A DNA stretch of 64,000 nucleotides from Hyalangium gracile (lineage in GTDB: Bacteria; Myxococcota; Myxococcia; Myxococcales; Myxococcaceae), in the NCBI RefSeq assembly GCF_020103725.1, contig NZ_JAHXBG010000030.1, positions 36,337-100,336 on the forward strand, in the 5' to 3' direction. The notes beneath the pieces are model-generated. The model saw only the letters and a program-made list of their open reading frames with translations, was not told the origin of the DNA and searched no databases. A program made the position numbers and the translations under genes. Below are positions 1,760-64,000 of the stretch, one piece after another (the stretch's first letter is position 1; every line of letters begins with the position of its first letter).

Positions 1760-3556
<1,797 letters not shown>

Positions 3557-3604
3557 ACAGGCCGTTCCCGAAGGGGCTCCGGGCTGTTACATCCCCCAGC
3601 CGCC

Positions 3605-5581
<1,977 letters not shown>

Positions 5582-10778: not shown

Positions 10779-10857
10779 GTACGCCTCGACGAGAGGGAAC
10801 GAGTGTGGCCAGCGGACCGTCTCATGCCTTGAACGGTCCGTCCTGGCCAGAGCAGAG

Positions 10858-11988: not shown

Positions 11989-14226
11989 TCAGCCCGCCTT
12001 GCGCTTCTTTTCTCGTTTGGACCTGGCCTCGGGAGGCTTGGGAGTCGGGGTTTCCCGGGAGTCTTCCACGGGTGAGGGGAGCGCGGGAGGGGGGGCGGGC
12101 AGGGGCGTACCGTCTGTAGGAGGAGCCTCCACCGCCTGTGGCTCCGCTGGGAGCGCCGGCAGGCGGATGACGAAGGCGCACCCCTCTCCGGGCTTGCTGT
12201 GCACGGAGATGCTGCCCCCGTGGTTCTTGACGATGCGCTGACAGATGGCCAGCCCCAGGCCGGTGCCCTTCTGTTTGGTGGTGAAGAAGGGCACGAAGAT
12301 GTGCTGTTGCTGGTCCAACGGAATGCCGGGCCCGGTGTCGGACACGTGGACCTCGACGAACTCGTTGAGGTTGCCCCGGAACTCGCTGAAGCGGTCCTGC
12401 TTCACGGTGCCCACGGTGATGCGGCCGGGCACCTCGCCGATGGCCTGCACGGCGTTCTGCACCAGGTTGATGAGCACCTGCTTGAGCTGCTCGGCGTCCG
12501 CGTCCACCCGTGGCACGGCCAGGTCCATCTGCACCGCCAGCTCGATCTGCCTGGGCACGTCGTTCTGGATGAGGCGCATGGTGCGCGTCACCACCTCGTT
12601 GAGGTCCGTGGGCCCGAAGCTCTGCTTGAGCGGGCGCGCGTAGTCGAGGAACGCCGTCACCACGCCGTTGAGGCGGTTCACCTCCTCGACGATGACGCCC
12701 AGGAACTCGCCGTCCTCGCCCGGCAGCCGCTTGGGGTCCAGGCACTGCGCCGCGCCCTTGATGGCGCCCAGCGGGTTGCGGATCTCGTGCGCCAGGCCCG
12801 CCGCCATCTCGCCCAGGGCCGCCAGGCGGTCGCGCTCGCGGATCTTCTCGTACAGCTTGGAGTTCTCCAGCACCGTGGCCACGCGCTCGGCCACCGAGAG
12901 GATGAGGGCGATCTCGTCCGAGGCGTACGCCTCCGGCACGCGCTCGTCCCACAGGTTCAGGAAGCCGATGACGCGATCGTTGCCCACCAGCGGCACGGAG
13001 ATGCCGGACTTCATCTGCTTGAGCGCCGAGCGCGTGTCCTGCAGGCGCTTGATCTCGTCGCGGAAGCGCTTGCCCTCGGTGGCCTGCACCCGCAGGGCGG
13101 TGAGCCGGTGCTCCACGTTCTCCAGCAGCACGGCCTTCTGCCCGCTGGCGGCCGCCAGCAGCAGTCCACGCGCCGCGGCCGTGTCCAGGAAGCCCTCGGG
13201 CGGAGGGCCACGCGAGTCCAGCAGCCGGTAGCCGGGCCTGTCCTCGGCCAGCATGTACACGGAGGTGTGGGTGACACGGCCCGTCTCGTGGAGCGCGTCC
13301 AGCAGCAGCCGCGTGACTTCGGAGATGTCGATGACGGTGGCCATGCGCGCCCGGAGCGCTCCCAGCACGCGCAGCAGCTCGAAGCGCTCGCGGAAGAAGA
13401 TCGCCACCACGCGCTCCTCCACCTTCACCCTCAGCGGCTCCATGAGGATGATGATGACGAAGGCGGCCACCACCGTGGTGAAGACGTAGAGCCCCGTCTT
13501 CTCCTTCACCCAGACGGTGAGCACCATGAAGACGGCCGCCAGGATGGAGGCCAGCACCGTCTGCGAGGCGATCTTCCCCAGCAGCTCGTGCAGGTCCATC
13601 AGCCGCAGCCGCAGCAGCGTCTCCCGGAGGAAGAAGAGGTAGAGCGTGGAGAAGATGGGCCCCAGCGGCAGCAGGGGGATGTCGTAGCGCCGGCCGATCA
13701 AGTCCAGCGCCGTCAGCAGGATGGAGGCCCCCGCGCCGATGGCCAGGTACATGAGCCGCAGCCGCTCGATGCGCGACTCCTCGGTGCGAACCCGGTTCAG
13801 CAGCAGGCTCACCGAGGTGAGCAGGGTGACCAGCACCCACATGCCGGTGGCCACCCGCGCCCAGCCCGTCTGCGCCAGCGGCGTCACCGCGACGGCCAGC
13901 CCGAGCACGCTCGACAGCACGCCCAGCCGCCGGCCGAGCAGGTGCGTGCCCTTGCTGACGCCCAGGAACTCCAGGAAGAAGGAGACCGCCGTGCCGGGCA
14001 CCAGGGAGGCGAGCAGGATGGTGGCGCCCACGGCGATTCTGGACAGCCAGCCCGGCTCGGGGAAGATGCCCGCGAAGAAGAGTGCGAGGTAGTACCCCGC
14101 CACCGTAAGGGCGAAGACGGAATACAGCGTCCCCACCCGGGGCCTGCCTGGCCGGAGGAGCATCGACAGCGCAAGCGCCAGGCCGATGATCGACGCGAAC
14201 AGCGCGCTGAGGGTCCGGATGTCCAT
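11989..14226 (-). CDS. sensor histidine kinase: multi-TM N-terminal domain, GAF, HisKA, HATPase_c, Pro-rich tail
   Basis: About seven N-terminal hydrophobic helices; GAF-like segment; H-box LAHEIRNPL; N, G1 and G2 boxes; C-terminal Pro/Ala-rich tail. Confidence 0.85.
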   Translation of the reverse strand: MDIRTLSALFASIIGLALALSMLLRPGRPRVGTLYSVFALTVAGYYLALFFAGIFPEPGWLSRIAVGATILLASLVPGTAVSFFLEFLGVSKGTHLLGRRLGVLSSVLGLAVAVTPLAQTGWARVATGMWVLVTLLTSVSLLLNRVRTEESRIERLRLMYLAIGAGASILLTALDLIGRRYDIPLLPLGPIFSTLYLFFLRETLLRLRLMDLHELLGKIASQTVLASILAAVFMVLTVWVKEKTGLYVFTTVVAAFVIIILMEPLRVKVEERVVAIFFRERFELLRVLGALRARMATVIDISEVTRLLLDALHETGRVTHTSVYMLAEDRPGYRLLDSRGPPPEGFLDTAAARGLLLAAASGQKAVLLENVEHRLTALRVQATEGKRFRDEIKRLQDTRSALKQMKSGISVPLVGNDRVIGFLNLWDERVPEAYASDEIALILSVAERVATVLENSKLYEKIRERDRLAALGEMAAGLAHEIRNPLGAIKGAAQCLDPKRLPGEDGEFLGVIVEEVNRLNGVVTAFLDYARPLKQSFGPTDLNEVVTRTMRLIQNDVPRQIELAVQMDLAVPRVDADAEQLKQVLINLVQNAVQAIGEVPGRITVGTVKQDRFSEFRGNLNEFVEVHVSDTGPGIPLDQQQHIFVPFFTTKQKGTGLGLAICQRIVKNHGGSISVHSKPGEGCAFVIRLPALPAEPQAVEAPPTDGTPLPAPPPALPSPVEDSRETPTPKPPEARSKREKKRKAG

Positions 14227-14334
14227 GTTCGAGCGGACAGTCTAACCTGTGTTCACGTCCGGAAATTTTTAGACTGTCTCCCGTTGTCCTCGGGCGTGCC
14301 CGAGCGCATCCACCAGGGCCAACCGCCCGCCCCC

Positions 14335-16749
14335 ATGAAATCCGCCCTTTCGCTGATTGCCCTCGTCTCCTTCGCCACGCTGGCCTCCGCGCAGCAGGTG
14401 GCCTCCGAGCCTACCCACGCGCCGCAGCCCCGGACCGATGGCGCCCCTACCGAGGCCCAGCTCACGCCTCCGCCGGACGCGGAGAAGGAGCCGCTGCCCG
14501 ACGGCTATGTGGAGATCTTCAACCCCGCCTTCCCGTCGCCCGTGGTGGAGGCGCCTCGCAAGCCCGCCCCCGTCGTGAAGGTGGAGCTGGGCAAGGCCTA
14601 CGGCCTGGAGGATCTGACGCCCTACTTCGCCGAGGGGAAGAAGAAGGAGGCCAAGGCCGCCTTCGATCGCGGCTTCTACCTCAAGGCCCGCGAGCTGCTG
14701 CAGGGCGAGGGGGACTCGCCGCCGGTGCGCTACCTGCGCGCGCTGAGCGCCGTGCGCGCCGGGGATGACACCCGCGCGGCCGCGGAGATGGCGGCGCTGG
14801 CGGACGACTACCCGGCCCTGAAGGACAGGTGCCTGACGCACGCGGGCGTGGCGCTGGAGGATCTCGGCCGGTACGACGAGGCGGCGAAGCTGCTCGGCGC
14901 GGTGTCGGAGGACTCGAAGATGTACGTGGACGCCCGCCTGACGCTGGGCCGCGTGCTGCGCAAGAAGAAGGACTACGACGGGGCCATCGCCGCGCTCTCG
15001 CCGCTGGCGAACCGCCCCGCGCCGCTGTTCGGCCGCAACGTGGGCGCCGAGGCCCTCATCGGCATCGCCGACATCGCCGCGGAGAAGAAGGACAAGACGC
15101 GCGAGCGCGAGGCGCTGTGGCGGCTGTGGTCGCTGTACCCGCTCTCTCCGCTGACGAAGCAGGCGGACCGTCGCCTCAAGGGCATGAAGCCGCCGGTGGA
15201 GGCCCAGGTGGCGCGCGCCGAGCAGCTCATCGAGCTGCACCGCAACAAGCAGGGGCTCACGGTGCTGGAGCCGCTGCTGCCCACGCTGAAGCTGCCCGAG
15301 CCCATCGCCTGCCGCGCGCACTTCGCCTACGGCAAGGGCCAGCGCAAGGAGCGAAACCACACCAAGGCCATCGCCACGCTCACCCCGGTGGTGGAGCAGT
15401 GCCAGGACGCGGACCTGCTGCCGCGCGCCATGTACGTGCTGGGCTCCTCGCGCTCCATCGTGGACCAGAAGCGCGGGACGCAGACGTACGAGCGGCTCGC
15501 CAAGGAGTTCCCCGGCCACTCCTTCGCCGACGACGCGCTCTTCTACGCGGCGGACCTGTACGTGAAGACGGGCCAGCCGGAGCAGGCCGCGCTGCGGCTC
15601 GAGGAGCTGGCGAAGAACTACCCGCAGGGAGACTTCCTGGGCGAGGCGCTCTTCAAGTCCTTCTGGATCGCGCGCACCTCGAAGGCGGCCGATGGCGGGC
15701 TGGCGATCCTGGACCTGATCGAGCAGCGCTTCGCCGACGCGGACGAGACGTATGACGTGGAGCGGGCGCGCTACTGGCGGGCTCGGACGCTGCAGGAGCG
15801 CGGCCAGCTGGAGGGCGCGGAGGCCATCTTCGAGAAGCTCGCGCTGGAGCACCCGGCCACCTACTACGGGCTGATGGCGCGCGCGCAGCTGGGCGAGGTG
15901 GACAAGGAGCGCCTGGAGCGCATCGCGCCGCAGCTGGTGTTCACCGCGGAGACGGCCAGCCCGTGGCCCATGCACACCGGGCCCATCATGGAGAAGGATC
16001 CGCACTTCCTGGCCGGCGTGGAGCTGCTGCGCATGGGCTTCCCGGAGGCCGTGTCCTCCGAGCTGCTGGCCGTCAACCGCAACGGCCTGCCCGCCGAGTC
16101 CGCACGGCTGATCGTCCACCTGCTGTCCATGGCCGGGGACGAGCGCGCCGCGCACGCCGTGGCCCGCGTGGCGCTGCGTCGCGACTTGAGCGGTCGCATC
16201 ACCCCGCGCACCCGTCCGGTGTGGGAGATCGCCTATCCGAACGCGTACCGGGAGATGATCGAGAAGCACACCAAGGACGCCGGGGTGGAGCCGGATCTGC
16301 TCCAGGCGCTGATGCGCGAGGAGAGCGCGCTGGATCCCAAGGCGCTGTCCTGGGCCGGAGCGCTGGGGCTCACCCAGCTCATGCCGGCCACGGCGAAGTC
16401 GGTGGCCGCGCAGCTGAAGATCAAGCGCTTCCGCGTCGAGTCCCTGCTGGAGCCGGACCTCAACATCCGCCTGGGCGCGCACTACCTGGGAGAGCTCATC
16501 CGGAAGTTCGACGGCAACACCCCGTACGCGGTGGGCAGCTACAACGCGGGCTCCGGCGCCATCAACCGCTGGCGCTCCGAGCGCAAGGGCATGCCGCTGG
16601 ATGCGTGGGTGGAGGAGGTGCCGATCGCCGAGACGCGCGGCTACATCAAGCGCGTGCTGCGCTCCTACAACACCTACCAGCTCCTCTATGGTCGGACCGG
16701 CAAGGTCCCCATGGTCAAGTCCGCCGGGCTGTTGCCGGCGAAGCGCTGA
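14335..16749 (+). CDS. soluble lytic murein transglycosylase (Slt-like; TPR superhelix plus SLT domain)
   Basis: Signal peptide MKSALSLIALVSFATLASA; TPR-like superhelical region; C-terminal SLT catalytic domain (EESALDPKALSWAGALGLTQLMP...YNAGSG). Confidence 0.85.
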   Translation: MKSALSLIALVSFATLASAQQVASEPTHAPQPRTDGAPTEAQLTPPPDAEKEPLPDGYVEIFNPAFPSPVVEAPRKPAPVVKVELGKAYGLEDLTPYFAEGKKKEAKAAFDRGFYLKARELLQGEGDSPPVRYLRALSAVRAGDDTRAAAEMAALADDYPALKDRCLTHAGVALEDLGRYDEAAKLLGAVSEDSKMYVDARLTLGRVLRKKKDYDGAIAALSPLANRPAPLFGRNVGAEALIGIADIAAEKKDKTREREALWRLWSLYPLSPLTKQADRRLKGMKPPVEAQVARAEQLIELHRNKQGLTVLEPLLPTLKLPEPIACRAHFAYGKGQRKERNHTKAIATLTPVVEQCQDADLLPRAMYVLGSSRSIVDQKRGTQTYERLAKEFPGHSFADDALFYAADLYVKTGQPEQAALRLEELAKNYPQGDFLGEALFKSFWIARTSKAADGGLAILDLIEQRFADADETYDVERARYWRARTLQERGQLEGAEAIFEKLALEHPATYYGLMARAQLGEVDKERLERIAPQLVFTAETASPWPMHTGPIMEKDPHFLAGVELLRMGFPEAVSSELLAVNRNGLPAESARLIVHLLSMAGDERAAHAVARVALRRDLSGRITPRTRPVWEIAYPNAYREMIEKHTKDAGVEPDLLQALMREESALDPKALSWAGALGLTQLMPATAKSVAAQLKIKRFRVESLLEPDLNIRLGAHYLGELIRKFDGNTPYAVGSYNAGSGAINRWRSERKGMPLDAWVEEVPIAETRGYIKRVLRSYNTYQLLYGRTGKVPMVKSAGLLPAKR

Positions 16750-21738: not shown

Positions 21739-23516
21739 AGCCCTTCGAGCAGCAGACCTACTACGAGCTCCTCGAGATCCCCGTCACCGCACCGGAGGCG
21801 GAGATCCGCGCGGCCTATGCGCGCGCGATCGAGACGTACTCGCCCGACTCCGTCGCGGTGTACACGCTGGTGGACCCGGGGCAGATCGACGCCCTGCGCG
21901 CCCGCCTCACCGAGGCGATGGAGATCCTCACCGAGCCGGACCTGCGCGCCGAGTACGATCGGATGATCGGCGTGAGCTCCGGCGCGAGCGCCGTGGTGAC
22001 CCTGGCGCCCGCGCTGGCGGCGGCCGCCCAGGCCTCCTCGCCCCAGGACTCGGCCCCATCCAAGTCCTCCTCCAAAGCCCCCGCGAGCGCGCCGGCTTCC
22101 GCTCCCGCGGCGACGCCTCCCTCGAGCGAGGCGCGCGCTGAGTCGGTTCCTACGGCCGCGGCGCCGGTGCCTGCTCCAGCGCCTGCCGCGCCCGAGCCGT
22201 CTGCTCCGGCGGTGGCTGCTGCCGCGCCCGAGGCTCCGACCGCTCCCGCTCCAGCGGCTGCGTCCCCGGCGACCGCTCCCACCGTCACCCAGGCGCCGGA
22301 ACCGGCCGCGCCCCCGCCGGCGGCGGCCCCCACGGCGACTCCCGCGGAGCCCGCCCCCGCCCAGAAGGGCACGGAGGCCGAGCCACCCCCCGCCATGCCC
22401 ATCGCGCCTCCCGGGCAGTTCGTGCTCCCGGGCGGGGTGACGCCGAGCCAGATCCACGCGGCGTTCCGCAGCTACGCCATCTCCTACGTGCCGGTCCTGG
22501 TGCCTGCGCCTTCGCTGTCCACGGGCTCCGCGTTCTTCTCTCCGTTCTCGCCCCCGGCGCAGACGGAGGCGCCTCCGCCCGCGCCGGAGGTGGCTCAGGC
22601 GAAGGCTGCCGCGCCATCGGCTCCTGCCGCGCCACCCGCTCCAGAGGCCCCTGCCTCCCAGGCTCCGACGCCTGCCACCGAGCCGGCCGAGGCCGCTCCT
22701 CGGACCCCGAGCGTTGCCGCGCCCGTGGCCAGCGCTCCTATCGCCGAGCCTTCCCCGGCCCCCTCGGCTCCTGCCGCCGCGGCGGAGCCCCTGCCCGTCC
22801 CGCCCGCGCAGGCGGCCGCCGAGCCTCCGCGCGCTCCGGAGCCCACGCCCCCGCCCGCGCAGGCCGCCCCCGAGCCGTCTGCTCCCGTGGTCGTGCACCA
22901 CGACGACGACGAGGTCTCCGGCATGCGCGCGCCGATGCCGAAGCCTGGAGAGGGCCCGTCCGCCGCCAGGCCGGCCACTGCGCCGCACGCCCAGCCGGGG
23001 CGGCCCGGCAGAACCTTCGTCACGCCTCCGCCGCTGCCTCTGGGAGGCCGCCGTTCCCACCGCCCGTCGCCCACGGAGCCGCCGGCGGCCACGGCCGCTG
23101 ACGCAGGCAAGGGGAGTGCTCGCCCGGCGCATGCCGCGGGCACGAGCCTGGATGAAGCCCAGCAGCTCGCCCAGGAGTCCGCGATCGCGACGGCCGAGGC
23201 CGCGCTCGCCCAGGTGGCGGCGAAGGCGCGCGAGCCCAGGCCCAAGCCCGTCGAGCTGCCGCCCAACACCGAGTTCAACGGCGAGCTGCTGCGGCGGGTG
23301 CGCGAGAGCCGCAACCTGTCCCTCGCCCAGCTGGCCGAGCGCACGCGCATCTCCTCCAAGCACCTGGAGAACGTGGAAGCCGACCGCTACGCCGCGCTCC
23401 CGGCCACGGTGTACCTGCGCGGCATCCTCATGAACATCGCGCGTGAGCTCGGGCTGGATCCGCTCCGAGTGTCGAGGAGTTATCTGGCCCTGGCCGCGGA
23501 TCCGAAGAAGAAGTGA
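21735..23516 (+). CDS. J-domain-like protein with a long Pro/Ala low-complexity region and a C-terminal HTH (XRE/RodZ-like) domain
   Basis: N-terminal YYELLEIPVTAPEAEIRAAYAR resembles a J-domain. About 350 residues are P/A/S-rich. The C-terminus carries an HTH (LLRRVRESRNLSLAQLAERTRISSKHLENVE). Start overlaps the ParA stop codon. Confidence 0.6.
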   Translation: MKPFEQQTYYELLEIPVTAPEAEIRAAYARAIETYSPDSVAVYTLVDPGQIDALRARLTEAMEILTEPDLRAEYDRMIGVSSGASAVVTLAPALAAAAQASSPQDSAPSKSSSKAPASAPASAPAATPPSSEARAESVPTAAAPVPAPAPAAPEPSAPAVAAAAPEAPTAPAPAAASPATAPTVTQAPEPAAPPPAAAPTATPAEPAPAQKGTEAEPPPAMPIAPPGQFVLPGGVTPSQIHAAFRSYAISYVPVLVPAPSLSTGSAFFSPFSPPAQTEAPPPAPEVAQAKAAAPSAPAAPPAPEAPASQAPTPATEPAEAAPRTPSVAAPVASAPIAEPSPAPSAPAAAAEPLPVPPAQAAAEPPRAPEPTPPPAQAAPEPSAPVVVHHDDDEVSGMRAPMPKPGEGPSAARPATAPHAQPGRPGRTFVTPPPLPLGGRRSHRPSPTEPPAATAADAGKGSARPAHAAGTSLDEAQQLAQESAIATAEAALAQVAAKAREPRPKPVELPPNTEFNGELLRRVRESRNLSLAQLAERTRISSKHLENVEADRYAALPATVYLRGILMNIARELGLDPLRVSRSYLALAADPKKK

Positions 23517-53390: not shown

Positions 53391-54947
53391 GTGGGAGGCG
53401 GCATGGAGCGTCTGGAAGAAGCCCTGGAGGCCTGGAGGCAGGCGATTGGCGCCGAGCACGTGCGGGTGGACGCGGGGACGCTGGCGGAGGTGGAGCGGGC
53501 GACGTTCGCCACCACCCAGCGGGTGCCGGCGGTGCTTCGGCCCGGGAGCCGGGAAGAGGTGCAGGCATGTATGCGCATCGCCCACACGATGCGAGTGCCC
53601 GTCTTTCCAGTAAGTGGGGGGCGCAACTACGGGTATGGCTCGAGGGTGCCGGCGCGGACGGGGAGCGTGGTGCTGGAACTGGGGCGGATGAACCGGGTGC
53701 TCGACTGGGACGAGGACCTGGCCTACCTGACGGTGGAGCCGGGGGTGACGTTCGCGCAGGCGCACGCGTTCCTGGAGGAGCGCGAGTCGTGGCTGCAGCT
53801 GGCGACGATTGGCGGGCCGCCGCAGGCGAGCCTGATCGGCAACGCGCTGGAGCGGGGTGACGGGGGCGGGCCGCACGGGGACATCTTCCAGTTCGTCTGT
53901 GACTTGGAGGTGGTGCTGCCGACGGGGGAGTTGCTGCGGACGGGGCTGGGGCGCTACCCGGAGGCGTACGCGGCGCCGGTGCTGCGCTGGGGGCCTGGGC
54001 CGGGGCTGGACGGGCTGTTCAGCCAGTCGAACCTGGGGGTGGTGACGCGGATGACGTTCTGGCTGGCGCCGCGGGCGACGAGCGTGCGGATCGTCTCGGG
54101 AGCGCTGGAGGACGCGTCGCAGCTGGGAGAGGTGGTGGATCGGCTGCGGCTGTTGCGGCTGGAGGGGACGCTGCGCGAGGCGTACTCGCTGTGGAACGAC
54201 TTCAAGATGTTCTCGGTGCTGGGGCAGTACCCGTGGGAGGCGACGGAGGGACGGACGCCGCTGCCGGAGACGCTGCGCCAGAGGCTGCGAGAGGAGCAGG
54301 GGCTGGGGTCGTGGCACCTGAGCTTCCTGCTGCAGGCGCCGAGCGAGGAGCAGGTACAGGCGGCGTGGGGCAGGGCGGAGGCGGTGCTCAAGGGAGTGTT
54401 GCCGACGCTGACGTGCTACCGGGAGGAAGAGGTGGAGCAGGACGCGCTGCGGAGGGTGCCCTCGGCGCGCAACCTGCGGATGATGTACTGGCGGCAGCGC
54501 ACGCCGATGCCAGCGGATCCGGATCCGGACCGAGATGGCTGCGGGTTCGTGTGGCTGTCGTGCGCGGTGCCGATGAAGGGAGGGCACGTGGAGCGGGCGC
54601 TGGCGATCGCCGAGCCGCTGCCGCTCGAGTACGGCTTCGAGCCCAACCTGTGCGTGCTGGGGGTCGTTCCGCGGTGCGCGTACCTGGTGGTGGCCCTGGC
54701 GTACGACCGGAAGGTGGAGGGCGAGGATGCGCGAGCCCTGGCCTGCTACGAGGCGCTCCAGAAGGCGATGAACGAGGCGGGCTACTACCCGGCACGCCTG
54801 GGCATCCAGGCGCCGGTGCTCATGGCCACTGCGGAAGACGACTCATCGCGGGTGCTGGGAGCGCTCAAGGCAGCGCTGGATCCGCACGGCATCCTGGCGC
54901 CAGGGCGCTACCTGCCGGCCATTGATGACGAAGGTCTTGTTCGATGA
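53391..54947 (+). CDS. FAD-binding (PCMH-type / FAD_binding_4) oxidoreductase
   Basis: FAD-binding domain (PAVLRPGSREEVQACMRIAHTMRVPVFPVSGGRNYGYG). An alternative ATG exists at 53403. Confidence 0.8.
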   Translation: MGGGMERLEEALEAWRQAIGAEHVRVDAGTLAEVERATFATTQRVPAVLRPGSREEVQACMRIAHTMRVPVFPVSGGRNYGYGSRVPARTGSVVLELGRMNRVLDWDEDLAYLTVEPGVTFAQAHAFLEERESWLQLATIGGPPQASLIGNALERGDGGGPHGDIFQFVCDLEVVLPTGELLRTGLGRYPEAYAAPVLRWGPGPGLDGLFSQSNLGVVTRMTFWLAPRATSVRIVSGALEDASQLGEVVDRLRLLRLEGTLREAYSLWNDFKMFSVLGQYPWEATEGRTPLPETLRQRLREEQGLGSWHLSFLLQAPSEEQVQAAWGRAEAVLKGVLPTLTCYREEEVEQDALRRVPSARNLRMMYWRQRTPMPADPDPDRDGCGFVWLSCAVPMKGGHVERALAIAEPLPLEYGFEPNLCVLGVVPRCAYLVVALAYDRKVEGEDARALACYEALQKAMNEAGYYPARLGIQAPVLMATAEDDSSRVLGALKAALDPHGILAPGRYLPAIDDEGLVR

Positions 54948-55109
54948 CGACAAACTGGATGCGGTGCGCACGGACCCTTCAGATTCCAGGGTAAGAAGGA
55001 TCAACTGCGCCGGATCATCGGCCGGTAGAACACTCCTCGCTTGACGCCACTCAGCCCATCCTGGATTGCAAAGCCCCAGGCAGGTCGAATGCTTTTCGTG
55101 CGCTCCGTC

Positions 55110-58100
55110 CTATGCATGAGGAGATGGCCACGGCGCCACCTGCTGGATGCGCTCGGTGACTTCCTGCCGAACACGAGCGTAGTCCTCGATGAGCTTTGCC
55201 ACCGTCGGGCTTTGCCGCGTCTCATTATCCTTCTTGAGCTTCTCTTCCCTGATTGCGAGCCAGTTTTGGGCCTCCCGAGCCTGCTCCAACAAGGCCTTGG
55301 CCGGGTCCTCCACGCTCGTGAGCGAGGGCTGTCCTCCGGCAACGCCTGATTCGGCGGCCTTCCGCAGAGCGAGCCCCGCCTGGAGCGTGCACTGAACCAA
55401 ATCCCCCAAGTACGAGGGCTGGACGTTGCCGTCGAACATGCGGATGGCCTCCCACATTCGCTCGATACCTACCATCGGCTCGTTCTTCCGCGCTAGGATC
55501 TTGCCCCACTCGAACCGGGACGAGGGCCGCCGTTCCGCCGCTTTCTTGAAGTAATCGGCTGCTTGGTCGTGGTCCGTTGGCTCTCGAGAGGCGAAGTAGA
55601 AGCCGTACTCCTCGTTCACCAGCGGGTCATCCGGGTTGATTTGGGAGGCACGTTTGAGCGCGCGCTCGGCGTACTCCTCCCAGCGTGGCCAGTTCGCTTG
55701 GCGGTACACTCGCGCCAAGCAGGTGTGCGCTGCGATGAGGTCGGGCAGGTAGGTGAGCGCGCGTTGCATGAGCGCCTCGCTATCTTTTCGGACCACCCGC
55801 TGGAGCGCTTCCCGGCTTCGCGAGTCCAGCTTTTCCGGGGAAAGGCTCGGCAACTCGTTCTCCAACTTGGAACGTGCCTCTTGCAACTGCTCGGAAGAGA
55901 ACTCCATCAACTCGGCCTGATCCAGACGTCGCCGGCCCATGACATAGAGTGCGTAGCCGCGCACTGGAGCGAACTCCTTCTCGGTGACGCCCTTCGGAGG
56001 AGTGCTCTTCTCGAAGAAGGCCTCCAACTCCCGGATCTGTGCATCCAAATCGGCGGATTCCTCGGCGGTGAGTTGGTGCCGCGTGGACTTCCCCGTTCGC
56101 ATCTTCCCGCAGACCTCCAAGAGGCAGGCTTTTGCGTCCAGCGCGAGCCTTCCCTCGTGCGCTGCTAGCTCCTTGAAGACCTTGTGTGCGCCCCTGAGCG
56201 CGGCGAGCCATCGTCCCTGAGCTTGGAGCAGTGCGGAGTGATACTTCTTCTCGTCCGAGAGCTGCCCTTCGGGCAGCTCTTCCAGCAGTGCGCGGGCGAC
56301 CTCGGGCTCGCGCAGCTTCCGCATGACGATCGCCAGCTTCAGCTTGGCGTGCGCCATCCGCGGATCATGGGCCAGGGCCGCCTGCAAAAGGTCTCGGGCC
56401 TTCTTGAGAGCTTGCGCCCGGTCATCTTGCGGCAGGACACCATCCATCACGAGTAGCGCCTGATAGTACGCGGCGAAGGCATCGGGACTCTTCGTCATCT
56501 GCTTGTCTGCCGGGAACTTTTGGTGCGCGAGCTTGAGTGCAAGCTGCCGGAAGGCGTCGTTGGTGGCGGCAGCAGTGATCCCTGTGGCTATCGCGGTCCA
56601 GCGGCCGATTTCCTTCCCGGTCGCGTTGTCGAACTTCCGGATGAACACCCGGATGTTCCCGCCTTCCACGGAGACGACCCCCGTCAGTTGATAGCGCCGC
56701 TGCTTAAAAGCAAGCTGCGCGAGGATGTTCCAAAGCGCTTTGGCTGGGACCGACAGCGGCCCGACAGTTACCTTCTGCTCATCGCCCAGGTACTGCGCGA
56801 AGTCCTTGAGGCTCTCATAAGCGGTGGAGTCCCACTGGGGCAGCGCCTCGCCGAGGTTCGCCTCGTGTCCGGTTACCGGCACCGTGGGCTGGAGGGCAAC
56901 TTCCTGGAAGCAGACTTTGAGCCTCGCCATCTGCAGCTCACTCGCACCGGGCCTCGCCTCGTCGCTCAGGTCGTAGATCACCAGCTCAGAGTCTTCCCGC
57001 CGTTTCAGGAAGAGGCGCTGGATCCACGCCTTGCACTGCAGCAGCAGGGATACCAGCAGAAGAAGGACGATGACCCCGAGCAACACGAGCACTGGGGTCT
57101 TAAAGGGAGCCACAACCTCCTTGAGCCAGTGCCAGAGCGATAGGATGAGATGATCCTGCTCCTCGATCATTGCCCTGCCGCTTGCAATCTCCTCGATGAG
57201 GGTTGGTACGCCCTGCGCGAGAGGCTCCATCTCGGCATAGAGCTTCTTGGCCTCCTCAAAATTTCGGGAGTCGACGGCAGCTTTCACCTTCGCGCGGAGT
57301 GCGTTGTAGTCCGTGCTCCATTTCTCCAGGTGGTAGACGTAGGCGATCAGCTCTGGAAAGTCCTTGAGCTTGCTGGAACCCCTCAGTGTGGTCAGCATCT
57401 CTGCGATGCTTTGATGCGCGCCGTAGGCAAGCTTGATCAGGTTCTCCTGCCGCCGGATCTCAGCGAGCGCATCCTGGTACCGGCCTAGGATGAGCCGGGC
57501 GGGAGCGTTGCCGGGGGTGGGCATGGTGGCCGTCAGGGTCTTCTGGAGCAACTCGGACGCTCCGTCCACCGGCTTGCCGTCCTTACCAGTATCCGTCCAC
57601 ATTCGGCCGGCGGCTGCGGCCGCGCGGACCTCCGAGAACCCTTTCAACCAAGCATCAGTCATGCCAGCTGCATAGGTCGCACGAGCCGTGTTGTAGGCTG
57701 CGGCCGCGAATTCGATCTCCTCCTTTAGCTTGGGCGTGAGGGCCGTCTGGGCGAGCGGTTGCACTTGGGCTTGCTCGTACAGCAGCATTGCTTGCGCGAG
57801 GTCTCCTCGGCTCAGGGCCTCGCTGGCTGCCTTCCGGAGGGCTTCGAGGTCCGCTTGCCAACGCTGGAGCCGGTAAACGTGGGCGAGGAGTTCCGGCTGG
57901 TTCTCCAGCTTCTTGGAAGCCTTGAGATGGGCCAAGAGTTCCGCAGTTCCAGTTCCATCGGTTGTTGTATAGATGTAGCGGAAGCGCATCTCGCCGCTTC
58001 GCAGTTCCTCAAGCGCCTCCTTATATTGGAGCAGCTCATCGGTTTGTGGCTGGGCACTGCCCACGATATCCAGAGCCCCCCCAGGGACGAACAGCCGGCC

Positions 58101-58208
58101 CTCTGCGGCTGCCACTTTCGCCTGCTGTAGGGGCGTGGCAGACCCCTGGGGCTGAGCGCTGATCGCTAGGAGAGTTAGCACACGGACGAATAGGAGGGAC
58201 GATGCCAT
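55110..58208 (-). CDS. large membrane-anchored TPR-repeat protein
   Basis: Signal peptide (MASSLLFVRVLTLLAISAQ), internal TM helix (VLVLLGVIVLLLLVSLLL), many TPR-like helical repeats. GC lower than the genome backbone. Confidence 0.65.
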   Translation of the reverse strand: MASSLLFVRVLTLLAISAQPQGSATPLQQAKVAAAEGRLFVPGGALDIVGSAQPQTDELLQYKEALEELRSGEMRFRYIYTTTDGTGTAELLAHLKASKKLENQPELLAHVYRLQRWQADLEALRKAASEALSRGDLAQAMLLYEQAQVQPLAQTALTPKLKEEIEFAAAAYNTARATYAAGMTDAWLKGFSEVRAAAAAGRMWTDTGKDGKPVDGASELLQKTLTATMPTPGNAPARLILGRYQDALAEIRRQENLIKLAYGAHQSIAEMLTTLRGSSKLKDFPELIAYVYHLEKWSTDYNALRAKVKAAVDSRNFEEAKKLYAEMEPLAQGVPTLIEEIASGRAMIEEQDHLILSLWHWLKEVVAPFKTPVLVLLGVIVLLLLVSLLLQCKAWIQRLFLKRREDSELVIYDLSDEARPGASELQMARLKVCFQEVALQPTVPVTGHEANLGEALPQWDSTAYESLKDFAQYLGDEQKVTVGPLSVPAKALWNILAQLAFKQRRYQLTGVVSVEGGNIRVFIRKFDNATGKEIGRWTAIATGITAAATNDAFRQLALKLAHQKFPADKQMTKSPDAFAAYYQALLVMDGVLPQDDRAQALKKARDLLQAALAHDPRMAHAKLKLAIVMRKLREPEVARALLEELPEGQLSDEKKYHSALLQAQGRWLAALRGAHKVFKELAAHEGRLALDAKACLLEVCGKMRTGKSTRHQLTAEESADLDAQIRELEAFFEKSTPPKGVTEKEFAPVRGYALYVMGRRRLDQAELMEFSSEQLQEARSKLENELPSLSPEKLDSRSREALQRVVRKDSEALMQRALTYLPDLIAAHTCLARVYRQANWPRWEEYAERALKRASQINPDDPLVNEEYGFYFASREPTDHDQAADYFKKAAERRPSSRFEWGKILARKNEPMVGIERMWEAIRMFDGNVQPSYLGDLVQCTLQAGLALRKAAESGVAGGQPSLTSVEDPAKALLEQAREAQNWLAIREEKLKKDNETRQSPTVAKLIEDYARVRQEVTERIQQVAPWPSPHA

Positions 58209-58301
58209 GCTCTGCTCCACCTTCCGGAAGTGCGGCGCATCATGGGCCCTGGTGCCCTTCCCCGAAAGAGGAGACGAGCAGCTAGGGGCCAGACGATTTC
58301 C

Positions 58302-60251
58302 TCATCCAGCTCCGCCGCCGCTCTTGCTGATAGTGCGAAGGATGGCGTAGCGCCTGGAAACCCATTGCCCTGGTTTCGTGAAGTCAAGCTGCCTGCGTTC
58401 ATCGAGAGTGACCAGCTTCTTGTAGAAGCTAAGATGCGGCGGCTGGCGCAGATAGTCACCGAGCTTTTCGGCGGCCTCATCCTGCGAATTGTAGAACGCC
58501 ACCGTCTTTGTCTTCACCGGCTCCGTGCTCACCAGGATCTCACCGCGCCCTTCATTGAAGTACCGGTTCAGGATGTAGGTATCCACGATGGGCACCTCGT
58601 CGATGATCTGCAGGGACCCGAGCGCCGAGTTCAAGACCACGCAGCACTCAATCGAGACCGCCGCCGGATCCACGTTGCCACCTACCTTGTTCACCTCGTC
58701 GGCGAGCCAGGCTGGGTTTTCGCGGACATACTTCACCTTGCCCTGAAGCTGCTTGACGGCGTCGCGGATGCGCTCCTCATGCAGGAACCATTCATGCGAC
58801 GTGGCCGGCCGCCGGAAGCATTTGATCTCACCCACCAGGATCTTGTTGCCGATCCACACCACTAGGTCGAGGTCGCCCACGGAGGAATCGGGGGGCTGGA
58901 GTTTGTGGGGAACAACCCCGGAGAAGTTCCAGTGCGGCTTGCCCTTTATCTTCTTCGCGAGCGAGGCCCGGACATGGTCTTCGTAGGAGGTGCCGCGTTT
59001 TCCCAAATCCCATCCTCCTTCGCTCATCCAGTACTCGAGCGAACGCCGCAGATTGGGGGATTGGAGCGCGGCAAGCACGATGACCCGGTGCTCGGGACCG
59101 ACACTCACAAGGGGCCTGAACCAAAGGCTGTCACGGACTGTCCGCCACGTGAGCGCATCGATGATAGTGCGGCACCGCTCGTCCGCGAGACCGGTGGCCT
59201 TGGCGAGTGCGGCAACCAGCGCTCGTACTGGGATGAGTGGGGCAAGCTCCTCGAACTGCGCTGGGTGGGTGAGGGGGATTCGGGGCATGCGAGAGGCAAT
59301 GTCCATAGTCAGGGGGACGAGGGCCGCCCAAGCCTCCAGCATCTCGAGGAGCGTCACCCCACCGAGCGACTCCAAGGGCTCTTTCGCGTGTGGGTCGAGA
59401 TCGGGCTCGCTCGCGACCATCCGCCAGAGGTGGATCTGAACCGCCATGTCTTCGGTGGTCTCTCCGACGTGAACCTTTCCGCTCAACTTCCTGAAGCGGA
59501 TGGCCTTTCGGCGCAGGATGGCGTCAAGCACGCGGGGTAACTTGCGAAGTCCCTCGATGCCGTGCTGCATCATTTCCTGTACCAGCATGGTCTCCCGATC
59601 CAAGCCGAGGGCACGCGCACTGGCACGCTCAAGGTCACGAGGAACCAGCTGGGTAGGCTGATCCTCCGGCATCTCCACCGCCAGATCGTGATGAAGACAC
59701 TCCATCCAGTCCTCCTCAAGCCCGTGATAGGCGATCGTGAAATTGAGCCGCAGGAACATCTGGCGCAGCTGTCCCAGCCCGTCGAGCTCGTTAGCGAAGG
59801 TGCGCGGAGTGCTCGCCGTCAAGGCCGCCAGCTCGAAGCGGAGCCCGTCCACGGTTCCCTCCACTGTAGCCTCGGCGGGGGCCACGTTCACATTCCCGGC
59901 GAGAGAAATCCTGCTCTCCACTATATCCCGCTGCGTGATCGTGCCACGAGTCGCGGCAAGGTTTCGTTGGACGGTCTCCGCCACCGTCAGGCATTCACGG
60001 TTGACCAGTCCAACCGCGCGCCGGATGATTTGATCGGGACGGCCTGGGGGCACGGGGGTTGCCTCGAAATACGCGCGTAGCCCCTCAAATTGGGAGTCGA
60101 ACCAGAGTGCTGCCGCGAACAGACGCAGATCTTCCAGACTGGGGGATGGGATGGCACGAAGCGCGGAGAGCCACTGCTCTGGCTCGAAGCCCTTCTGTGA
60201 CGGTCCCTTAAGGTCTCCCTCAAGGACACGGGTGCGAAGCGTCTTTTGCAT
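58302..60251 (-). CDS. hypothetical protein with C-terminal PD-(D/E)xK / NERD-like nuclease motif
   Basis: 650 aa from MQKTLRTRV. The C-terminus has GDLDLVVWIGNKILVGEIKC (D...E-x-K arrangement). GC lower than the backbone. Confidence 0.5.
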   Translation of the reverse strand: MQKTLRTRVLEGDLKGPSQKGFEPEQWLSALRAIPSPSLEDLRLFAAALWFDSQFEGLRAYFEATPVPPGRPDQIIRRAVGLVNRECLTVAETVQRNLAATRGTITQRDIVESRISLAGNVNVAPAEATVEGTVDGLRFELAALTASTPRTFANELDGLGQLRQMFLRLNFTIAYHGLEEDWMECLHHDLAVEMPEDQPTQLVPRDLERASARALGLDRETMLVQEMMQHGIEGLRKLPRVLDAILRRKAIRFRKLSGKVHVGETTEDMAVQIHLWRMVASEPDLDPHAKEPLESLGGVTLLEMLEAWAALVPLTMDIASRMPRIPLTHPAQFEELAPLIPVRALVAALAKATGLADERCRTIIDALTWRTVRDSLWFRPLVSVGPEHRVIVLAALQSPNLRRSLEYWMSEGGWDLGKRGTSYEDHVRASLAKKIKGKPHWNFSGVVPHKLQPPDSSVGDLDLVVWIGNKILVGEIKCFRRPATSHEWFLHEERIRDAVKQLQGKVKYVRENPAWLADEVNKVGGNVDPAAVSIECCVVLNSALGSLQIIDEVPIVDTYILNRYFNEGRGEILVSTEPVKTKTVAFYNSQDEAAEKLGDYLRQPPHLSFYKKLVTLDERRQLDFTKPGQWVSRRYAILRTISKSGGGAG

Positions 60252-60600
60252 GTGAGTCGGGCAGCATCCACCTGGAGCCCTCGGACGTCGAGCACTTCTA
60301 GCAAGGCTGCTCGCTCGCCCTGTTAGGGGCGTGTCGGGGTATTGCCTGAGATTGGCTCCTACATACGATCCATAGCGGTATGCAAAGATCGCACCACTCA
60401 TCCTATAGTGGGTTGTTGGGATTCCCTGACAGACTCCTAGACGAAAGTGGCGCTGGTGGACAGGTGGGAACTATGGACAACTCGGAAGGGTGCCGTGGAA
60501 AGCCACTGAATTCGATGGGGTGGGTACGGACATGCGATCTTCTCCACCAAATCGCTCGGTGATTCCCGGCCGGGTGGCAGTAAGCGAGACGAGGGGGACC

Positions 60601-63600
60601 ATGAGCGAAGTGGAGATGAATCGATGGGCACAGTCGCTGAACGCATACAACGGCTGGGAACTCCTGTCGGGAACTGCCGGGCTCCAGTTGATGCGGGAGA
60701 ACGTGGATCGTGTGCTCAGGTTGGAGGCTGCGGCAGCTCTCGTGGCCTCGATGCCGCCTAAGCGGGACGGCGCTCGGATGACGCCACATCGCTGGGGTAC
60801 GTGGCTGAACGATTCTAAACTAGTAGCAGCAGTGGCGCCCAGCGAAGATCCGTTCGCCTACCCGCTCGTCGAGGAGATCGTGTTCTACGGAGGCTCATTC
60901 AGGGTATTTCCTGGCTCCTTTGACGAATCGGCCTACATCATTCGAAACCTGTTGAAGGCGATGTTTCTCGCGCGAGATTTTCCCGATATCGCTTTCGCTG
61001 ATTCGATGCGCCAGATCTGTGGCGCCGTGCTTCGAATCAGTGATTGCGTCGCCAAACGAGCGGGAGTGACCCGGGGGACCTTCGCGTCGCATGAGGGGAC
61101 GGGTGTGACGATTCCGCCATCAGCCCGGTTCGAGGAACTCAGGCGTGCCGTGGCCTTCACGCAGGAGGATTTGAGCCAGCTTCTGTCCGACATTGAGGAC
61201 GGCGTTTCCATCCTGGTGCCTCTGATGGCCAAGTGGGGAGAAATCCGGTTTGACTCCGTTGATCCATCCTTAAATCCTCTGCTTCCACAGCCGCTTGTGG
61301 ACTGCGGCGACACGATCGTGGTCGCAGCGCCTCATGCCCTCTTGGCCGCGCTCCGGCATCACATCTTGTCAGAAGCGTCCAAGGCAGGATGCTCCGAAGA
61401 ACTCGCCAAGCGCTACCACCTTGCGATCCTCGATTCTGTCGATCACTCATTCGAGTTCATGAGCGCTCGGCCTGCCCCATTTCCGTTGAGTACAACGACT
61501 CAGGGAGGGCTCATCTCTTCGGATCGCCTCTTTCAATTCGATACCGATAAGATCTTGTCTGTCATGCTTGCAACCAATTCTTTAGCTGATTACGAGGGAC
61601 AACCCATCGTTGGCACATGGAACCCTGATTCGCTAGAGGATGTGGTGATGCAGCGGCTCCGTTGCGTGGAGTCGTCGGTGATGCAACAGAAGACACCACC
61701 CAACGAGATCCTTCATGTGATCGTGATTCACAGCGCTGGGCTCATGGCCAGTATGGGGCTTCGTTCTGGCGTGTCCTCTATCGAGGCTCCCATTCTCCTG
61801 ATGTCAGCGGCGGAACTGGAGATCATCGCCCAACTGGAGATGGGGCACCAACTTGCGCTGTATGATTTTGTGCGTGCACGTGAATGGACTCGGGGCAGAA
61901 CGAACATCTTCGTGTGGGGGGTGCTCGATGAGTTCGCAATGTATAGAAAGAACAAGTACAGTTATTACGCCTCTGACGAATGGCAGCCCCACATGCTTAG
62001 TGTACAGGCGGGGTTCGCGGAGGAACTTCGGCGCCAAGTCATAGAGAAACGTGACGTGCACGGTGTCCGTTTCCCTGGCACGTCCGGCTTCGGTGAGGTA
62101 ACCCTCTCCGCAGACGATCGCTCCATCCCGACATACGTCCCATTTCCGCTTAGGGAACGAGCGATGTTCTTAGTCGAAGGACTCCCGCTGCCCATCTGGG
62201 TGACTGGACCGGAGCAGACGGCGGACAAACGCTATCGCTCGCTTCAGTTCAACTTCGCGGACACGATCGCTTACTGGATCTGGCAATTTACTCCTGTGTT
62301 GGCGAAGATGCTTGAGCGCTGCGCGCCGGTCCAAGAAATCCAGATAGAGGTCGACCTTCAGCCCGGTGAGACTTGGTTCCGAGCGGACGAGGGGGTGCAG
62401 TCGCAATTGCCCAAGGATGAGATTACGTGCGAAGTCACCGGACCGACGCGGCTTACTCTCCGCTTGTACGCGGGACTTCTGACCCTGATGGCGGGCCCGG
62501 ACAATCGGGGCGAGCGCGACCTCATGATCTCCGTTCTGGCGGGAATCGCCAAGCTTCTGGCTAGGAATGGTGTCGAGGCGTCCGGTTTGGCGCGCGAGGA
62601 GTTGGCTCAAGTTATCGACGTCCATGCCCCCCTGGGGTTGAAGAAAAAGATGGTCATCGTACCGAAGAGGCTTGCCTTCGACCTAATGGCTGATGGCTTG
62701 CCTTCCTATCGGAAGCTACATCGGTCGCACGATGATGAACTACTGGATGGCATGGCGAACGTCGTAGCCAAGAAGTACAACCTCCGGGTTGGGCCGATTC
62801 CGGAATCAATCGTGTCGGCGGTGCTCCGAGATGCCGTGGCGTACTACTTCGATGCGCTGAAGAGGCTGATCTCCACACTTCAGCCAGTGCAGTTGCTGAA
62901 CTGGTTGGTCGCGCAAAACGAGAGCATCATTCGTGAATGGCGCGACAAGGATTTCTCTGCCGCCACGCGAATGGCCTGCTTTGCGACCCAAACGGCAATG
63001 GTTCAGCGCCTCGTGGAAGAGGTTCCGGAGTTGAACAGCACGTGGCTGCCTAGTCGGTTTCTTATCGAATTTGCGACAGCGTGTCCTCCCAAGGGGCTGC
63101 GGCCTATGAGCTTCAGCGTCTACGACCGGTTGATCTCGCTGGCGTCCATGGTCTTCAATTGGGGGTTTGCGAGCGACATGGTGTACTACAAACTCGGCGA
63201 CGTTCGGGTCGACATGCTTCGCTCCGGTCGATTGGGCATTGATTGGAGGACCTATGACAAGGCGCGAGATCAATTCCTCGGGAGCCACCTGCTAGGTCAA
63301 ATCGACGCGAGCATTCGCTCGTTCCCTGAGCGCTGGGAAGAGGTCGAGGAGCCATCTGGCGAGGGCGAAGCGCCCGCGCTCATTCGCAGGATCGATGACG
63401 CGGCTCTGAAGGAGTTCGGCTTCACCTTATCCGAACTTTTCGCATTTCTAGTCGAGGTCATGAACGTCGGTTTGGAGATGGAACATGAGCCGAAGCGCTG
63501 TGAACTCGGCTGGTTCATGTCACAAATGGCGGCGAGGCTGGGCTGGACGGTCGACAAGGTGCGGCTCGCCTTCGAACTGTTCGCGCTACCTCCACGGGAG

Positions 63601-64000
63601 GCCTTCCTGTCTCCGCCGGCTCCATTTAGCCGTGAGGATGTGTACCCCTGGCGATTCAACCGCGCGCTTTCGTATCTCCGCAAGCCGCTGCTTTTGTATC
63701 GTGAGCGCGACGTCGAGGAGGTGATCTGGGGCACCCGGGCCGTGACCGTCGCGGGAGAGTATCTTCAGCGGATCTGCGTGGATGGTCAGCTGCGCGCGCG
63801 CACGCCCGAGATGCGGCGCTGCAACGGACATTTGAACAACCGGTGGGGTCGCGGGTTCAATGACACGGTGACGAAGGTTCTGGCGGGCATGCCTGGATAC
63901 TTGGTTCGGCCCAGAGTCGCGAAGGTCGGCTCTCTCAAGTTTGCACGCGACAATGGAGAAGATCTGGGCGATATCGACGTGTTGGTGGCGATCCCGGACC
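60601..64000 (+). CDS. very large hypothetical protein (over 1130 aa; 3' end lies outside the window), possible C-terminal PD-(D/E)xK/NERD-like region
   Basis: ATG at 60601 preceded by GAGGGGG. No in-frame stop codon through position 64000 on manual translation. The last residues (GDIDVLVAIPD) resemble the start of a PD-(D/E)xK core. Absent from the ORF track because it is an open-ended ORF. Confidence 0.6.
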   Translation, partial: MSEVEMNRWAQSLNAYNGWELLSGTAGLQLMRENVDRVLRLEAAAALVASMPPKRDGARMTPHRWGTWLNDSKLVAAVAPSEDPFAYPLVEEIVFYGGSFRVFPGSFDESAYIIRNLLKAMFLARDFPDIAFADSMRQICGAVLRISDCVAKRAGVTRGTFASHEGTGVTIPPSARFEELRRAVAFTQEDLSQLLSDIEDGVSILVPLMAKWGEIRFDSVDPSLNPLLPQPLVDCGDTIVVAAPHALLAALRHHILSEASKAGCSEELAKRYHLAILDSVDHSFEFMSARPAPFPLSTTTQGGLISSDRLFQFDTDKILSVMLATNSLADYEGQPIVGTWNPDSLEDVVMQRLRCVESSVMQQKTPPNEILHVIVIHSAGLMASMGLRSGVSSIEAPILLMSAAELEIIAQLEMGHQLALYDFVRAREWTRGRTNIFVWGVLDEFAMYRKNKYSYYASDEWQPHMLSVQAGFAEELRRQVIEKRDVHGVRFPGTSGFGEVTLSADDRSIPTYVPFPLRERAMFLVEGLPLPIWVTGPEQTADKRYRSLQFNFADTIAYWIWQFTPVLAKMLERCAPVQEIQIEVDLQPGETWFRADEGVQSQLPKDEITCEVTGPTRLTLRLYAGLLTLMAGPDNRGERDLMISVLAGIAKLLARNGVEASGLAREELAQVIDVHAPLGLKKKMVIVPKRLAFDLMADGLPSYRKLHRSHDDELLDGMANVVAKKYNLRVGPIPESIVSAVLRDAVAYYFDALKRLISTLQPVQLLNWLVAQNESIIREWRDKDFSAATRMACFATQTAMVQRLVEEVPELNSTWLPSRFLIEFATACPPKGLRPMSFSVYDRLISLASMVFNWGFASDMVYYKLGDVRVDMLRSGRLGIDWRTYDKARDQFLGSHLLGQIDASIRSFPERWEEVEEPSGEGEAPALIRRIDDAALKEFGFTLSELFAFLVEVMNVGLEMEHEPKRCELGWFMSQMAARLGWTVDKVRLAFELFALPPREAFLSPPAPFSREDVYPWRFNRALSYLRKPLLLYRERDVEEVIWGTRAVTVAGEYLQRICVDGQLRARTPEMRRCNGHLNNRWGRGFNDTVTKVLAGMPGYLVRPRVAKVGSLKFARDNGEDLGDIDVLVAIPD

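Follow-up and report, generated by a model that had tools for sequence, protein, structure and literature searches.

At the right-hand end of a 64,000-nucleotide stretch of the Hyalangium gracile genome (contig NZ_JAHXBG010000030.1, positions 36,337 to 100,336 of the forward strand; the whole stretch is referred to as the window), an open reading frame (ORF) starts from an ATG at position 60601 and is still open where the sequence stops. Preceding it on the opposite strand are two genes, for a 649-amino-acid (aa) uncharacterised protein and for a 1036-aa protein with tetratricopeptide repeats (TPR). We consider it very probable that the ORF represents the first 1133 of the 1241 residues of a protein of the Upx family, a stand-alone anti-phage system that combines sensor and effector in one chain. 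Computed translation yielded 1133 sense codons, in agreement with a preliminary description of this DNA that had read the frame from the sequence alone, and a search for an in-frame stop that it might have overlooked found none. The nearest in-frame stop upstream of the ATG lies at 60427-60429. The five other frames over the same interval contain 48, 40, 40, 19 and 30 stops (mean ~35), and with ~35 stops expected the chance of a frame staying open by luck is ~4e-16. The content of guanine plus cytosine (GC) at the three codon positions, 0.62/0.43/0.69, follows a coding pattern that is uniform from end to end, and the longest minus-strand ORFs within the interval comprise at most 160 aa. Together, the stop counts, the GC pattern and the short minus-strand ORFs rule out both a chance ORF and a better gene on the opposite strand. 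The ORF is a real, intact, horizontally acquired gene.

Two further statements of the preliminary description concern the place of this ORF among its neighbours. The frame is missing from the mechanically produced ORF list because it runs off the window end; as had been supposed, that list omits such ORFs. It had also been called the largest gene of the window. Two stop-free frames on the forward strand, 1760-5581 and 12076-16749, are in fact longer, but in each of them the GC-rich codon position changes from 1 to 3 midway, and GC at the third codon position (GC3) reaches the level of real genes only in the second part (from ~3.6 kb and ~14.3 kb, respectively). Each is therefore an antisense shadow fused to a shorter real gene: these long frames are high-GC artefacts whose first parts shadow minus-strand genes, and the statement on size is thus correct.

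What kind of protein does the gene encode? Its translation matches WP_224248958.1, a 1241-aa H. gracile 'hypothetical protein' whose annotated start is the ATG at 60601, over residues 1-1133 at 100% identity; the gene end is extrapolated to ~64326, past the window, which leaves the last 108 codons outside. The starts of around 30 homologues fall no more than a few residues from the same ATG, and conservation across the family sets in from residues 13-16. Precomputed annotations place the Pfam family PF28173 ('Upx-like') on WP_224248958.1 and on all close relatives; a local Pfam scan of the ORF gave no match because PF28173 is newer than the local Pfam copy, so that this assignment is known solely from the precomputed annotations. 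For the part within the window, the sole family match in NCBIfam is NF042954 Upx_antiphage ('anti-phage protein Upx', E 1.6e-36, 125 bits), and the sole match in PADLOC is Upx (PDLC02221; E 3e-30 for this part, 1.9e-37 for the full-length protein). All 28 aligned members of its clade likewise match Upx_antiphage and nothing else in NCBIfam, with a best E of 5e-79. Remote homology, the check that the preliminary description had proposed, thus places the protein in the Upx anti-phage family. By these profile matches, WP_224248958.1 appears to be a distant subfamily member of Upx, and the ORF is a divergent myxobacterial member of this known family, that is, a defence gene of a described type and not a new kind of system.

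The alignment to a solved structure extends this assignment over almost the entire chain. SeUpx, the Upx of Salmonella enterica NCTC6026 (SQI81149.1; PDB 9wuf), was first described by Gao et al. 2020 (cited in PMC13099982), and its cryo-EM chain 9wuf_A is the sole relative in the PDB, found already with the single sequence (E 1.9e-17). A profile of five close relatives likewise matched only 9wuf_A (E 2.6e-49), and the match consists of three collinear stretches. In the N-terminal domain (NTD; domain E 5e-11), positions 20-269 of the profile pair with residues 53-292; in the middle domain (MD), 530-656 pair with 566-690, a stretch that is weak alone (i-E 4.8) yet collinear with those on either side; and in the C-terminal domain (CTD; domain E 2.2e-32), 736-1189 pair with 764-1228; the SeUpx domains span residues 1-515, 516-714 and 715-1272, respectively (PMC13099982). 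Within the middle domain, the columns Y558, W559, W561, Q562, N635, E638 and R639 are invariant. As judged from these alignments, the H. gracile protein has the layout NTD-MD-CTD in one 1241-aa chain, collinear with the solved Upx. The two resemble each other in being single chains of ~1240-1270 aa with the same domain order and the same C-terminal D...ExK triad, in having no nucleoside triphosphatase (NTPase) domain, and in being encoded in a mobile or defence-type island; they differ in host, in their low identity and bit score (given below) and in the putative N-terminal site.

In the profile alignment to 9wuf_A, the C-terminal residues D1126, E1141 and K1143 align with D1161, E1176 and K1178 of SeUpx, and a set of 29 full-length homologues drawn from many phyla keeps all three without exception (29 of 29). 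In SeUpx these residues are catalytic, and the E1176A exchange abolishes defence (PMC13099982, PMC13601566); the same nuclease-dead variant also loses terminase-induced toxicity (PMC13601566). The SeUpx CTD is a Mg-dependent 3'-5' exonuclease on single-stranded DNA (PMC13099982). D1126 (nucleotides 63976-63978) is the sole triad residue inside the window, and E1141 and K1143 were read from the database protein. This explains why the preliminary description had seen no recognisable motif, a remark that holds for the letters at its disposal: the window contains only GDID, the first half of a PD-(D/E)XK site, since the ExK half sits 15 codons further on, beyond the window end. Its remark that there is no P-loop extends to the entire full-length protein, from which the pattern [AG]x4GK[ST] is absent.

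How might such a protein act? By analogy with SeUpx, HpUpx and PbUpx, the N-terminal domain, together with the middle domain, would sense a phage protein, the likeliest candidate being the large-terminase ATPase domain. Binding would release the C-terminal Mg-dependent PD-(D/E)XK nuclease, which would degrade DNA (in vitro, single-stranded or replication-intermediate DNA) and stop phage production, and the infected cell would probably be sacrificed. The experiments behind this scheme are those of Evans et al., who found SeUpx and HpUpx to defend E. coli, identified the large terminase, not gp16, as the only factor to activate the two proteins in a genome-wide toxicity screen, and reported that diverse terminases activate SeUpx, HpUpx and PbUpx, the terminase ATPase domain being sufficient (PMC13601566). 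Zhou et al. found SeUpx to be monomeric (PMC13099982), and Upx, itself described as monomeric, is reported to share no homology with Avs in sequence or structure (PMC13601566, PMC13099982). For the H. gracile protein, our comparison shows full-length homology to the solved Salmonella Upx, retention of the D...ExK triad and the island context.

Several points weigh against this interpretation. Identity to SeUpx is only ~17%, and the 125 bits compare with an equivalog cut-off of 1900 for NF042954, so that the model does not establish functional equivalence; this score is consistent with the NCBI name 'hypothetical protein'. The last 108 residues, including ExK, lie outside the window along with everything downstream, and are known only from the database protein. 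An AlphaFold2 (AF2) model of the 1133-aa fragment, built from a six-sequence alignment, was poor (mean predicted local distance difference test score, pLDDT, 45.2; predicted template modelling score, pTM, 0.30). A Foldseek search with this low-confidence model returned 9wuf as the sole significant PDB match (E 1.4e-14 over 1189 columns), but at a TM-score of 0.14, which gives no independent confirmation of the fold. The trigger is disputed in the literature, with gp16 (PMC13099982) set against the large terminase (PMC13601566), and the Upx experiments concern SeUpx, HpUpx and PbUpx and none of them a myxobacterial Upx. Finally, the pair of neighbouring genes is conserved in two myxobacteria, and this Upx copy may not act alone. 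The same fragment model also gave sub-threshold Foldseek matches, mostly to winged-helix regulators (MarR/ArsR-type proteins and the Cdt1 C-terminal domain; ~130 columns, E 0.4-4), which hint at a winged-helix-like element somewhere in the Upx protein, as far as a low-confidence and unreliable model can do so.

The N-terminal domain bears on a disagreement over how Upx works. Zhou et al. propose that this domain is itself a minimal PD-(D/E)XK-like exonuclease, which the middle domain keeps auto-inhibited until a gp16-like ejection or structural protein frees it, and that it acts with the C-terminal nuclease on replication intermediates; their model for SeUpx draws on in-vitro nuclease assays, mutagenesis and pull-downs, and its proposed site comprises D122, D127, R129, E147 and D173 (PMC13099982). 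The surrounding block (around SeUpx residues 109-133) does align with the H. gracile protein at high posterior probability, and a conserved stretch there, E82-D83-P84...G97-G98...P104-G105, includes the nearly invariant E82-D83-P84, G98 and G105. The equivalents of the five proposed residues, however, are V94, S99, R101, K119 and D148, that is, SeUpx D122, D127 and E147 are replaced and the proposed site is not retained (V94, S99, R101 and D148 are placed with high posterior probability, the alignment at K119 being of low confidence). Across 29 clade members, these columns hold mostly V/T/P/A, S/G, T/R/I, K/R/E and D/N/E, and no acidic catalytic set is conserved. Since the columns are not conserved, the N-terminal domain of this clade would be expected to be a sensor only, and a sensor-plus-single-effector model is favoured. 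The screen that names the terminase and not gp16 as sole activator of SeUpx and HpUpx (PMC13601566) speaks in the same direction, and we regard two nucleases in this protein as unlikely. The missing site is no argument against Upx membership, because PMC13601566 does not define the family by it. A variable N-terminal site next to an invariant D...ExK in 29 homologues favours a family-wide sensor role over a universal second nuclease, a modest point in what is a live disagreement between two 2026 papers (PMC13099982, PMC13601566).

Coordinates of the Upx-family gene, its parts and its neighbours within the window
Feature	Position	Strand	Basis and remarks
Upx-family gene, codons 1-1133 of 1241	60601..64000	+	no stop; 100% identity to WP_224248958.1; family-model matches
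Putative ribosome-binding site, GAGGGGG (purine-rich)	60591..60597	+	read in the sequence, 3 nt 5' of the ATG; function inferred
N-terminal domain, approximate, residues 1-~480; putative phage-protein sensor	60601..62040	+	boundary extrapolated from the SeUpx limits (PMC13099982)
Middle domain, approximate, residues ~481-686; AYWxWQ and DNxGER motifs	62041..62658	+	profile alignment to 9wuf_A
C-terminal domain, residues ~687-1133 of ~687-1241, cut by the window end	62659..64000	+	profile alignment to 9wuf_A
G1123-D-I-D1126, first half of the predicted PD-(D/E)XK site	63967..63978	+	aligned to 9wuf_A; D1126 corresponds to SeUpx D1161
Intergenic region between the divergent Upx and 649-aa genes	60252..60600	.	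NCBI start of the 649-aa protein and the ATG at 60601
649-aa uncharacterised protein with Upx-CTD-like module, same island	58302..60251	-	100% identical database protein; not shown to be part of Upx
1036-aa TPR protein, second gene of the neighbouring operon, same island	55110..58220	-	Pfam TPR_19 (E 1.3e-4); NCBIfam PilW-like TPR (E 2.3e-8)

How large is the family to which this gene belongs? A word-indexed protein search returned only five relatives, even with a profile query, and the family became evident from an exhaustive HMMER scan over 1.84 billion representative proteins (50% identity clusters), which retrieved 2014 clusters with E<=1e-3, 900 of them with E<=1e-30. Among the top 150 clusters, most have a length of ~1200-1260 aa and a full-length identity of 30-40%; in all, the scan revealed hundreds of ~1240-aa proteins at this level of identity. 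The catalogue of PMC13601566 comprises 2093 Upx sequences. Scanning one genome per species gave 37 loci, which their record titles assign to Acidobacteriota, Dehalococcoidia and Tepidiformaceae, Planctomycetota, Solirubrobacterales, Clostridia, Syntrophaceae and Myxococcaceae; 24 of them have an uninterrupted ORF of family size, and at least six phyla are represented. The H. gracile protein falls into an environmental clade (PF28173) from Pyrinomonadaceae/Acidobacteriota, Dehalococcoidia, Planctomycetota and Solirubrobacterales, whose members are of the same size and 27-40% identical to it over the full length, and share the invariant AYWxWQ, DNxGER, PWRFNR and GDIDVL...ExK. Together with its Myxococcus fulvus orthologue and these hundreds of environmental relatives, the 'hypothetical protein' WP_224248958.1 can now be named as an Upx-family anti-phage nuclease; the N-terminal nuclease residues, which are not conserved in the family, and an adjacent uncharacterised family that carries the Upx effector module are modest additions. 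Phage defence in myxobacteria is little studied, and the gene is a candidate terminase sensor against myxophages.

The two closest relatives are a copy in a metagenome-assembled genome (MAG) of Myxococcaceae (79% identity) and M. fulvus WP_248546288.1 (52%). The former (DATHBR010000029.1, 10001-14091) is a pseudogene, interrupted after about residue 117 by the gene for an IS66-family transposase (10331-11788, minus strand) and with its reading frame ending after residue 833. In a Pyrinomonadaceae MAG (JAVEDP010000042.1, 10001-17424), two full-length Upx paralogues stand in tandem, 36% and 34% identical to the H. gracile protein, in contrast to the one Upx and shorter CTD-like paralogue of the window. 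This tandem pair fits the 'second Upx' association of PMC13601566. That paper also tested a Pyrinomonadaceae Upx, PbUpx, which is not necessarily encoded by this tandem locus.

Base composition sets the gene apart from its surroundings. The window has a GC content of 68%, the Upx gene 58% as compared to 70% for the rest. GC falls from ~54.95 kb on, from ~70% to 58-62% across the last three genes (~54948-64000), and GC3 is 0.69-0.77 in these genes (Upx 0.69) versus 0.85-0.95 in the upstream housekeeping genes, which include a trigger-factor-like gene, ribosomal protein L3 and an FAD-binding oxidase (53391-54947). The drop in GC and GC3 therefore indicates that the last three genes form a horizontally acquired island, with its left border at ~54948-55109 and its right border beyond the window. 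No tRNA or integrase is visible at the left border; the only tRNA of the window, a tRNA-Ala (CGC) at 23258-23337 on the minus strand, lies a long way from the island and does not seem to be connected with it. The genes around the M. fulvus Upx encode an OLD-family ATPase/TOPRIM nuclease, an HTH_17 protein, an IS66 transposase and an integrase, and the Upx gene there is GC-poor relative to the transposase and integrase genes on the same contig.

This context also speaks to whether the nuclease serves defence at all. It could instead be a restriction endonuclease or an enzyme of DNA repair or recombination: the PD-(D/E)XK fold is common to many repair and restriction enzymes, and 9wuf_A was itself deposited as 'Restriction endonuclease'. 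Yet Pfam and NCBIfam scans detected no methyltransferase in the 5.5 kb of island upstream, a patchy spread over several phyla in a low-GC island with insertion-sequence and integrase surroundings fits a mobile defence gene, and family members have been put to direct anti-phage tests (PMC13099982, PMC13601566). Such a non-defence function is highly improbable.

A defence protein of the Upx family invites comparison with Avs1-3 (antiviral STAND NTPases), with which it would share the proposed logic of one protein that senses the large terminase and fires a nuclease effector (PMC13601566). In contrast to Avs1-3, the window Upx has no STAND or P-loop NTPase and no TPR sensor: neither it nor the 649-aa neighbour contains a Walker A pattern, and Pfam, PADLOC and NCBIfam gave no Avs or NTPase match. 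The neighbours were also considered as the 'split-TPR Avs1' that has been reported near some Upx genes. This was ruled out, there being no NTPase domain by Pfam, PADLOC, NCBIfam or motif scan. The 1036-aa protein, with one membrane segment predicted from hydropathy (~368-400) and C-terminal TPR repeats, does carry a Walker-A-like GKMRTGKS at residue 705, but the M. fulvus orthologue (54% identity) does not conserve it, which is why we do not consider the 1036-aa protein an Avs.

Could the Upx of H. gracile nevertheless depend on its two neighbours, for example for shared sensing or membrane anchoring? The three genes lie next to each other in both H. gracile and M. fulvus, at similar divergence, despite the pair being inverted relative to Upx. 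In M. fulvus (JALPKM010000025.1, 4217-13708), they are encoded on one strand in the order 649-aa homologue, TPR protein and Upx, with identities of 50-60%, 54% and 52% to the window genes. All three have a GC content below that of the host in both genomes, the 649-aa neighbour carries the Upx effector module, and in some genomes Upx is reported to be accompanied by another Upx or by a split-TPR Avs1 (PMC13601566). Against a three-gene system stands its distribution: the trio occurs in only two related genomes, which shared ancestry of one island explains; the two neighbour genes are absent from 39 of 40 other Upx loci, the exception being the related M. fulvus locus; and relatives of the 649-aa protein are found at three loci that have neither Upx nor the TPR partner (L039, L042 and L045 of our locus set). 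Moreover, an insertion of ~125 nt between PALRAPN and PPNLRRSLEYW disrupts the M. fulvus 649-aa homologue, a conserved NTPase motif is missing from the TPR protein, which is therefore not an Avs, and in E. coli SeUpx, HpUpx and PbUpx each function on their own (PMC13601566). A consensus scan of the region between the divergent genes (60252-60600) detected neither a sigma-70-like promoter nor a terminator. A joint three-gene module is quite improbable, and a functional link of any kind between Upx and its neighbours is possible, if weakly supported. The simplest reading of the trio is a co-inherited island of independent defence genes. Upx itself, to judge from the loci compared, appears to be a single-gene system without an obligatory conserved partner.

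In a profile comparison, hhalign matches residues 291-575 of the 649-aa protein to columns 936-1248 of the Upx profile (probability 96.5%, E 9.9e-10), with a site GDLDLV...GEIKC that resembles GDIDVL...VETKC of Upx, while the first 290 residues of the 649-aa protein are unrelated to Upx. The relationship is seen only between profiles, a pairwise BLASTP comparison of the two proteins not being significant, and scans against Pfam, NCBIfam and PADLOC found no family match except a sub-threshold Pfam NERD (E 0.05). Its structural model was equally poor, with sub-threshold Foldseek matches that are all PD-(D/E)XK nucleases (such as VC1899, McrC, Can2 and Bax1). One may speculate that the Upx effector module (~300 residues, with the PD-(D/E)XK core at its end) is a transferable cassette that also arms an undescribed family of ~650-670 aa with an unrelated N-terminus, and that, together with the membrane TPR protein, the three genes constitute a co-inherited myxobacterial defence island whose members respond to different phage cues or work together; we rate this broader idea as doubtful, though somewhat less so than the second nuclease or the three-gene module. 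Relatives of the 649-aa protein, ~660 aa in length, occur in metagenomes, where they are rare.

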